A DNA stretch of 64,000 bases from Escherichia phage HMD-P10. The DNA lies in the sequence record PV469800.1; one strand, 5' to 3'. The notes beneath the pieces are model-generated. The model did no database searches and was not told the DNA's origin. It saw nothing but the letters and a program-made list of their open reading frames with translations. This document shows positions 4,948 through 5,346 of the stretch, in pieces (positions within the stretch are counted from its first letter, which is position 1; each line of letters begins with the position of its first letter). A program made the translations under genes and the position numbers.

Positions 4948-5346
4948 ATGAAAACAGAATCTAGAGTAATTAATGGTAAGAAAGTAAATATCGTTCTGCT
5001 TGGGGCAAGAGATGGTATTAAGATGTCTATGAAGTTGGGTAAAATTGTTGTTCCAACATTTGCACAGATGCTGTCAAGCCTTACTGATAAAGATAAGAAA
5101 GAAGCTCCAATGGTTCCATTTAAAGAACTTGTTGAAGCTTGTTTTGACAGAATTGAAGAAATTAACCTTGAAGAAATGGCTACCCTGTTATTTCAAGGGG
5201 CAACTGTTGATGACTTCCCACTTAATATTGATACATACTTCCAAGCAAACTATGGTGAATTTATTGATTACTTAGCATTTGCGCTGGAGGCAAACTTCGG
5301 AAGTTTTTTCGAAGCAAGCATTTTCAAAAGCCTAACTTCTCAGTAA
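4948..5346 (+). CDS. tail assembly chaperone (G-like)
   Basis: 132 aa ORF immediately upstream of tape measure; slippery heptamer TTTTTTC near 3' end. Confidence 0.5.
   Translation: MKTESRVINGKKVNIVLLGARDGIKMSMKLGKIVVPTFAQMLSSLTDKDKKEAPMVPFKELVEACFDRIEEINLEEMATLLFQGATVDDFPLNIDTYFQANYGEFIDYLAFALEANFGSFFEASIFKSLTSQ

Follow-up and report, generated by a model that had tools for sequence, protein, structure and literature searches.

The 64,000-nt stretch of Escherichia phage HMD-P10 analysed here (PV469800.1; hereafter the window) comes from a Felixounavirus genome, i.e. that of a Felix O1-like myophage. The 1.5 kb round the site described below shares 98.5–99.3% identity with dozens of Felixounavirus genomes from phages of Escherichia and Salmonella, and 294 phage records match it. 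Genes for the tail sheath, the tail tube, two chaperone ORFs (G and T) and the tape measure protein follow one another (Table 1). Both chaperone ORFs thus lie between the tube and tape measure genes, which is the canonical G/GT layout. G matches the Phage_TAC_15 family over model positions 1–124 of 127 (E=1.2e-19; 71.5 bits against a cut-off of 22) and phrog_1613 with E=8e-49, whilst T matches phrog_4963 over its full length (positions 1–79 of 79; E=2.8e-55). The homologue of the tube gene has been named tail tube in phage Sf14 (PMC11821841). A terminator is annotated in the records of Salmonella phage Meda and Citrobacter phage Mijalis at the spot equivalent to the terminator-like hairpin in the gap between the tube gene and G. 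This strong hairpin would lower the transcription of the chaperone and tape measure genes behind it, and thereby control dosage at a further level, ahead of the frameshift proposed below.

Several database entries that match this region look mislabelled (MG065664.1, OK040807.1 and LR597663.1/LR597658.1). The chaperone is called a "head closure protein" in the C600M2 and VpaE1_ev records, and matches at ~96% to the Felixounavirus chaperone region occur in a record titled Campylobacter phage A132 and in one labelled Staphylococcus, both likely contaminants or mislabels.

Table 1. Genes and sequence features around the chaperone ORFs, in coordinates of the window.
Feature	Position	Strand	Evidence or detail
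Tail sheath gene	3060..4412	+	phrog_205 tail sheath, E=2.6e-125; PF11863 DUF3383
Tail tube / virion structural protein gene	4428..4874	+	phrog_280; PF11681 KPP10_Orf10
Terminator-like hairpin and T-run, gap between tube gene and G	4885..4914	+	13-bp stem, then TTTTTGTTTCT
G, tail assembly (tape measure) chaperone, 132 aa, zero frame	4948..5346	+	PF21822; phrog_1613
SD-like GGAGG, candidate frameshift stimulator	5286..5290	+	13 nt 5′ of the heptamer; codons CTG GAG GCA
Slippery heptamer T TTT TTC	5304..5310	+	in phase with ORF 4948..5346
Segment in the -1 frame after the predicted shift, 92 codons and stop	5310..5588	+	open -1 frame 5268..5588
T ORF with its own ATG, 79 aa	5349..5588	+	phrog_4963 "tail assembly chaperone"
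Tape measure protein gene	5588..7816	+	phrog_4036; PF20155 TMP_3

Read directly on the plus strand, positions 5304–5309 are T and 5310 is C. The G codons here are AGT (5302–5304), TTT (5305–5307) and TTC (5308–5310), so that the run reads T TTT TTC in the X XXY YYZ phase, with the TTT codon at 5305 standing 13 codons ahead of the G stop TAA (5344–5346). This is the sole in-phase heptamer inside the overlap of G and T. The -1 frame has no stop between 5268 and the TAA at 5586–5588 and runs across the G stop; T and the tape measure gene share one base in TAATG, the last of the T stop and the first of the ATG. An earlier note on this DNA had picked out this heptamer, in this phase and at this distance from the G stop, as a candidate programmed frameshift site leading through an open -1 frame to the tape measure start, and the sequence bears out each of these points. 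The note had expected a fused product of ~210 aa. Joining 4948..5310 to 5310..5588 gives 121 aa in frame 0 and 92 aa in frame -1, that is 213 aa, the length of the joined CDS annotated in Meda. A sequence search of the PDB with this 213-aa fusion turned up no relative.

How often such a heptamer would turn up by chance was estimated from 80 likely genes in the window, whose 18,556 codons contain 63 in-phase XXXYYYZ heptamers (0.34% per codon). At this rate ~0.09 heptamers are expected over a productive stretch of 26 codons. One genome by itself thus makes the heptamer only suggestive (p about 0.09), and this expectation, together with the conservation of Phe-Phe at the protein level, speaks for a reading in which the heptamer is a chance by-product of a conserved Ser-Phe-Phe in G and no recoding takes place. 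Within the window there is no second in-phase TTTTTTC, and the -1 extension that follows 5304–5310 (94 codons) is the longest of all 63 heptamers, the runner-up having 46.

Elsewhere in the window, the last part of a small ORF at 60589–60921 contains TTTAAAA (60861) and AAAAAAT (60906), both in phase, and their -1 frames extend 22 codons beyond the stop. These are likely due to chance, since no downstream ORF is obviously served by them.

Comparison with relatives weighs heavily against a chance origin. All 38 close and medium relatives from GenBank and IMG/VR have the identical heptamer in phase; they range from near-identical down to 27% protein identity and include Suspvirus-like phages, Mooglevirus, an uncultured relative at 47%, Yersinia phage P778, Erwinia phages phiEa21-4 and MM7 and Cronobacter phage PBES 02. 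In these loci the -1 continuation runs for 77–125 codons past the G stop (94–125 from the heptamer) and terminates at or near the start of the next gene. A further search, using a profile built from seven G proteins, yielded 49 distant IMG/VR loci (23–50% identity; 37–65% GC), of which 41 have T TTT TTC and 8 have T TTT TTT, the -1 frame continuing for 78–118 codons and the +1 frame staying short. Phe-Phe is present in these 49 loci partly by construction, since the peptide pattern that served as anchor ended in these two residues, but the choice of codons was left free. The heptamer and the -1 ORF were also found in two Vequintavirinae by plain tblastn with no motif anchor. Across all roughly 90 related loci, which reach down to 23% protein identity and span 37–65% GC, T TTT TTY is in phase and is followed by a -1 ORF of 78–126 codons.

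Synonymous codon choice gives the sharpest contrast. Amongst 26 lineage representatives (<~70% similar), with expectations taken from each locus's own codon usage, the base ahead of the Phe-Phe codons is T in 26/26 (6.2 expected, P=4e-18) and the first Phe codon is TTT in 26/26 (11.4 expected, P=6e-12), P values which overstate independence because shared ancestry is ignored. TTT is fixed even in genomes of 62–65% GC, including ones in which it makes up ~10% of Phe. Despite the kinship of the loci, the synonymous pattern is unambiguous. Moreover, in 33 distinct Felixouna-, Susp- and Mooglevirus sequences there is a trough of variability at 5278–5340 (1–4 variable sites per 30 nt vs 10–15 elsewhere), and GTTTTTTCG is invariant in the multiple alignment as far out as PBES 02. 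With synonymous choices fixed where only 6–11 of 26 would be expected, a long -1 ORF always following, a short +1 frame and T ORFs that lack starts (see below), a chance by-product of Ser-Phe-Phe is extremely improbable. The G/GT arrangement that the earlier note had taken to be conserved is indeed so, with its heptamer, phase and long -1 ORF kept in every relative examined. On this comparative evidence the frameshift site is very probably genuine, the comparison being decisive where the single genome is weak.

The T ORF has an ATG of its own at 5349, 2 nt beyond the G stop, and T could in principle be a separate 79-aa protein made by termination-reinitiation, either with the heptamer idle or alongside the frameshift. 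A near-stop ATG (within a few codons) is found throughout the Felixouna-, Susp- and Mooglevirus clade, and most GenBank records give two separate CDSs. However, there is no SD-like sequence at -16 to -5 of ATG 5349, and the position of the ATG varies inside the clade, at +15 vs +19/+20 codons: in L026, L028 and L030, of the 80%- and 74%-identity clades, it stands 4–5 codons later, and L024 retains the +15 ATG. Further out, the near-stop ATG is absent in Kolesnikvirus, L032 (one of the relatives compared), Vequintavirinae and most distant relatives, whereas the heptamer and the -1 ORF are retained there. The only start candidate for T in Yersinia P778 is a TTG. No ATG, GTG or TTG lies near the 5′ end of T in phiEa21-4-type phages, L032, PBES 02 and most distant loci; in these start-less ORFs the first possible start comes 37–73 codons in, well within conserved T sequence, and T is therefore reachable only via a frameshift. 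Owing to this lack of a start codon, the T region is left unannotated in the phiEa21-4 RefSeq record (L037, NC_011811, 1612–1847), where a -1 ORF of 96 codons, counted from the heptamer at 1554, exactly fills the gap. In P778 the -1 frame has a stop two codons ahead of the heptamer, so that the productive stretch is reduced to 13 codons and the heptamer still falls inside it. Thus, T starts vary or are missing and the heptamer is kept, which indicates that the selected feature is the shift site and not an independent start.

Protein data bear on the same question. Peptides of the T-frame ORF have been found by mass spectrometry in the Mooglevirus Sf14 (PMC11821841), and the -1 frame is therefore translated there. 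In the virion proteome of that phage the T-ORF product gp42 was detected and G (gp41) was not (PMC11821841, Table 1), an observation that favours reinitiation. We confirmed gp42 (FDI99_gp115; Shigella phage Sf14, NC_042075; L090, 901–1538) as a T homologue. The detection of gp42 without gp41 is not what a simple GT fusion predicts, and it would be unexpected if T occurred solely within a GT fusion kept out of particles, as G and GT are in lambda. Reinitiation at ATG 5349 leaves the synonymous conservation of T TTT TTY in 26/26 lineages and the start-less T ORFs unexplained, and is very unlikely to be the sole route to T. That it provides a minor extra route within the Felixouna-, Susp- and Mooglevirus clade is more credible, if still rather unlikely.

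We therefore return to a programmed -1 ribosomal frameshift at U UUU UUC, near the end of G. Most ribosomes would read on and terminate at 5344–5346, giving G. A small fraction, with a tRNA-Phe pair on UUU in the P site and UUC in the A site, would slip back one base onto UUU UUU and proceed in the -1 frame via CGA to the stop at 5586–5588; the predicted GT has residues 1–121 of G fused to a T segment of 92 residues. In E. coli a single tRNA-Phe (anticodon GAA) decodes both UUU and UUC, so that re-pairing would be cognate or wobble at both sites. ARAGORN found no tRNA genes in the window, and so none of phage origin that could bear on Phe decoding. Felix O1-like phages have about 22–25 tRNA genes (PMC5543628), and a cluster of that type must lie outside the window.

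Reporter data give an idea of how slippery the heptamer is. Sites with a UUN codon in the A site, and likewise homogeneous all-pyrimidine motifs, shift more readily than most (Sharma et al., PMC4066793). In E. coli reporters with a background of about 0.04–0.07%, U_UUU_UUC gave 0.121% frameshifting when unaided; the rate was 0.893% when the IS911 stimulators were present and 7.58% when the IS3 pseudoknot was (PMC4066793 supplement).

A homopolymer run of this kind also invites an explanation at the level of transcription, in which RNA polymerase slips on the T6 run and adds one U to the mRNA. The run reaches T7 or longer in 8/26 lineages, and a terminator scan found a weak 6-pair hairpin (CTGGAG/CTTCGG, 5284–5300; overlapping GGAGG) with the T-run of the slip site directly 3′ of it. 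However, bacterial transcriptional slippage is documented for runs of about 9 A/T (PMC5009743) and the run here is six T followed by C; selection for slippage should have made the run as long as possible, but 18/26 lineages, including all Ounavirinae, have C as its seventh base. Moreover, the run is always in X XXY YYZ phase, and the hairpin is not conserved in more distant relatives and is probably there by chance. Polymerase slippage is thus highly improbable, and a shift made by the ribosome is the better account of the run.

We next consider what might stimulate such a shift. GGAGG at 5286–5290 is found in all Felixouna-, Susp- and Mooglevirus loci, and its GAGG core lies at exactly 13 nt from the heptamer in 21/26 lineage representatives, vs 11.2 expected from their own GAG/GAA usage (P=3.6e-5). 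In the structural genes of the window GAG makes up just 27% of Glu codons. An internal SD stimulates -1 shifts at 9–14 nt (PMC5009743), a range into which the 13-nt spacing falls, and GGAGG would pair with the 16S rRNA of the elongating ribosome. The other 5/26 lineages, Kolesnikvirus and Yersinia P778 among them, have GAA instead of GAG, and the element is therefore not essential. It is the sole candidate here and a plausible stimulator, though we stop just short of calling this role probable.

The earlier note had also proposed a search for a downstream stimulatory structure, and none came to light: neither single-sequence folds nor RNAalifold nor Rfam gave a 3′ hairpin or pseudoknot. The 50 nt after the heptamer fold at -3.2 kcal/mol (z=+0.95) and the 90 nt at z=-0.86; single-sequence folds of 50, 90 and 111 nt showed nothing beyond shuffled controls. 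The RNAalifold consensus of 9 Ounavirinae sequences had essentially no energy and no covariation, and an Rfam scan of 4850–5700 (E<=1) gave no relevant frameshift element, the only hits being sub-threshold ones to unrelated families, two of them at the 4850–4922 terminator. Two individual folds were considered and discarded. A hairpin at ~5361–5393 begins ~50 nt past the site, too far to act as a stimulator, and a fold in which CUUCGGAA pairs with UUCGAAG ties up the heptamer and lacks conservation. By contrast, the GC-rich distant loci L047, L057 and L065 (IMG/VR) have strong hairpins 2–7 nt 3′ of the heptamer (-20 to -24.5 kcal/mol; z=-3.4 in L065). No such 3′ hairpin is seen in the AT-rich enteric lineages, and with a hairpin present in some and absent in others behind the same heptamer, lineages appear to tune it differently.

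Given the lack of a 3′ hairpin or pseudoknot, the efficiency at this site is expected to be low, of the order of 0.1–1% to a few percent. This fits the need for far more G than GT; in lambda the G:GT ratio is 30:1 (PMC5009743). By analogy, many copies of G and a few of GT would coat the tape measure protein, with the T part recruiting the tube protein. The anatomy of the site, the identities of the genes and the conservation of heptamer, phase and -1 ORF are shown directly by the sequences; the shift itself, its efficiency, the role of the SD-like element and the function of GT are what we infer.

The same frameshift has been recognised before. In Salmonella phage Meda (MH586731, Felixounavirus, 96% identical) a joined CDS, Meda_064, is annotated as "Tape measure chaperone frameshift product". 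The chaperone pair of Citrobacter phage Mijalis (Mooglevirus) is likewise annotated as a join; Moogle, Michonne and Mordin have two overlapping chaperone CDSs at the same position. The genome announcements for Moogle, Mijalis and Michonne state the frameshift (PMC5543628, PMC4319497, PMC4591319). Other annotators have thus independently arrived at the same frameshift. Two separate CDSs are given in most other Felixounavirus records, including the Felix O1 RefSeq, and the correct Felixounavirus product set would be G plus the 213-aa GT fusion. A search of the literature found no junction peptide or reporter measurement for any Ounavirinae phage and nothing specific on TTTTTTC or U UUU UUC in phage chaperones; a preprint on gene essentiality in Bas63 does not mention the chaperone.

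What we describe is therefore an ordinary G/GT frameshift, already known at this locus, and our additions are modest: U UUU UUY is fixed across the family, an SD-like element is conserved at -13, enteric lineages lack a 3′ structure, and the mass spectrometry of Sf14 is at odds with a simple fusion. We tentatively suggest a joint reading, which we regard as doubtful as a whole. All Phage_TAC_15 members, be they enterobacterial myophages of the Felix O1 and rV5 types or uncultured phages with a GC content of 65%, may share a fixed cassette of (G)GAGG, exactly 13 nt and U UUU UUY, and the conserved protein motif E-[AV]-N-[FY]-x-S-F-F may be largely a by-product of this RNA signal. AT-rich enteric lineages would rely on the SD only and GC-rich ones would add a 3′ hairpin, whilst the T-frame product may be present in virions or also be made alone, as the Sf14 data hint, unlike in lambda. 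Phages with the same heptamer and either an upstream SD only or an SD and a 3′ hairpin offer a natural series for the tuning of a weak heptamer.

Amongst known systems, E. coli dnaX and the IS911/IS3 cassettes share an SD-like element 9–14 nt upstream of the heptamer. However, they have a 3′ stem-loop, three-way junction or pseudoknot, and none was found here; in particular, no stem-loop or pseudoknot follows 5–9 nt after the heptamer as in dnaX/IS911-type sites. They also use A AAA AAG and reach much higher efficiency. In P2, the E / E+E′ pair is reportedly an example of a -1 frameshift in a myophage tail chaperone pair (attributed to Christie et al. 2002). P2 too combines a contractile tail with a T-rich run, reportedly T TTT TTG, late in the upstream ORF and just before the tape measure gene, the last heptamer base being different. 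Meda and the Citrobacter phages Moogle, Mijalis and Michonne are alike in genes, heptamer and length of the joined CDS (213 aa in Meda), with no substantive difference. The frameshift in the chaperones of tailed phages, including lambda gpG/gpGT, is said to go back to Levin et al. 1993 and Xu, Hendrix & Duda 2004. Its conservation is summarised in PMC5009743. As in lambda, the major tail or tube gene is separated from that of the tape measure by two overlapping ORFs, the second of them in the -1 frame; the G stop comes a few codons after an X XXY YYZ heptamer, and a fusion product is predicted at a low level. Unlike lambda, with G GGA AAG, the heptamer is U UUU UUC, and it belongs to a contractile-tail phage whose G is a Phage_TAC_15 member and has GGAGG 13 nt upstream of the heptamer. 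At the level of sequence the site has every feature of the G/GT class. It is thus one more well-supported case of the universal G/GT strategy, and leaves the current understanding of that strategy unchanged.
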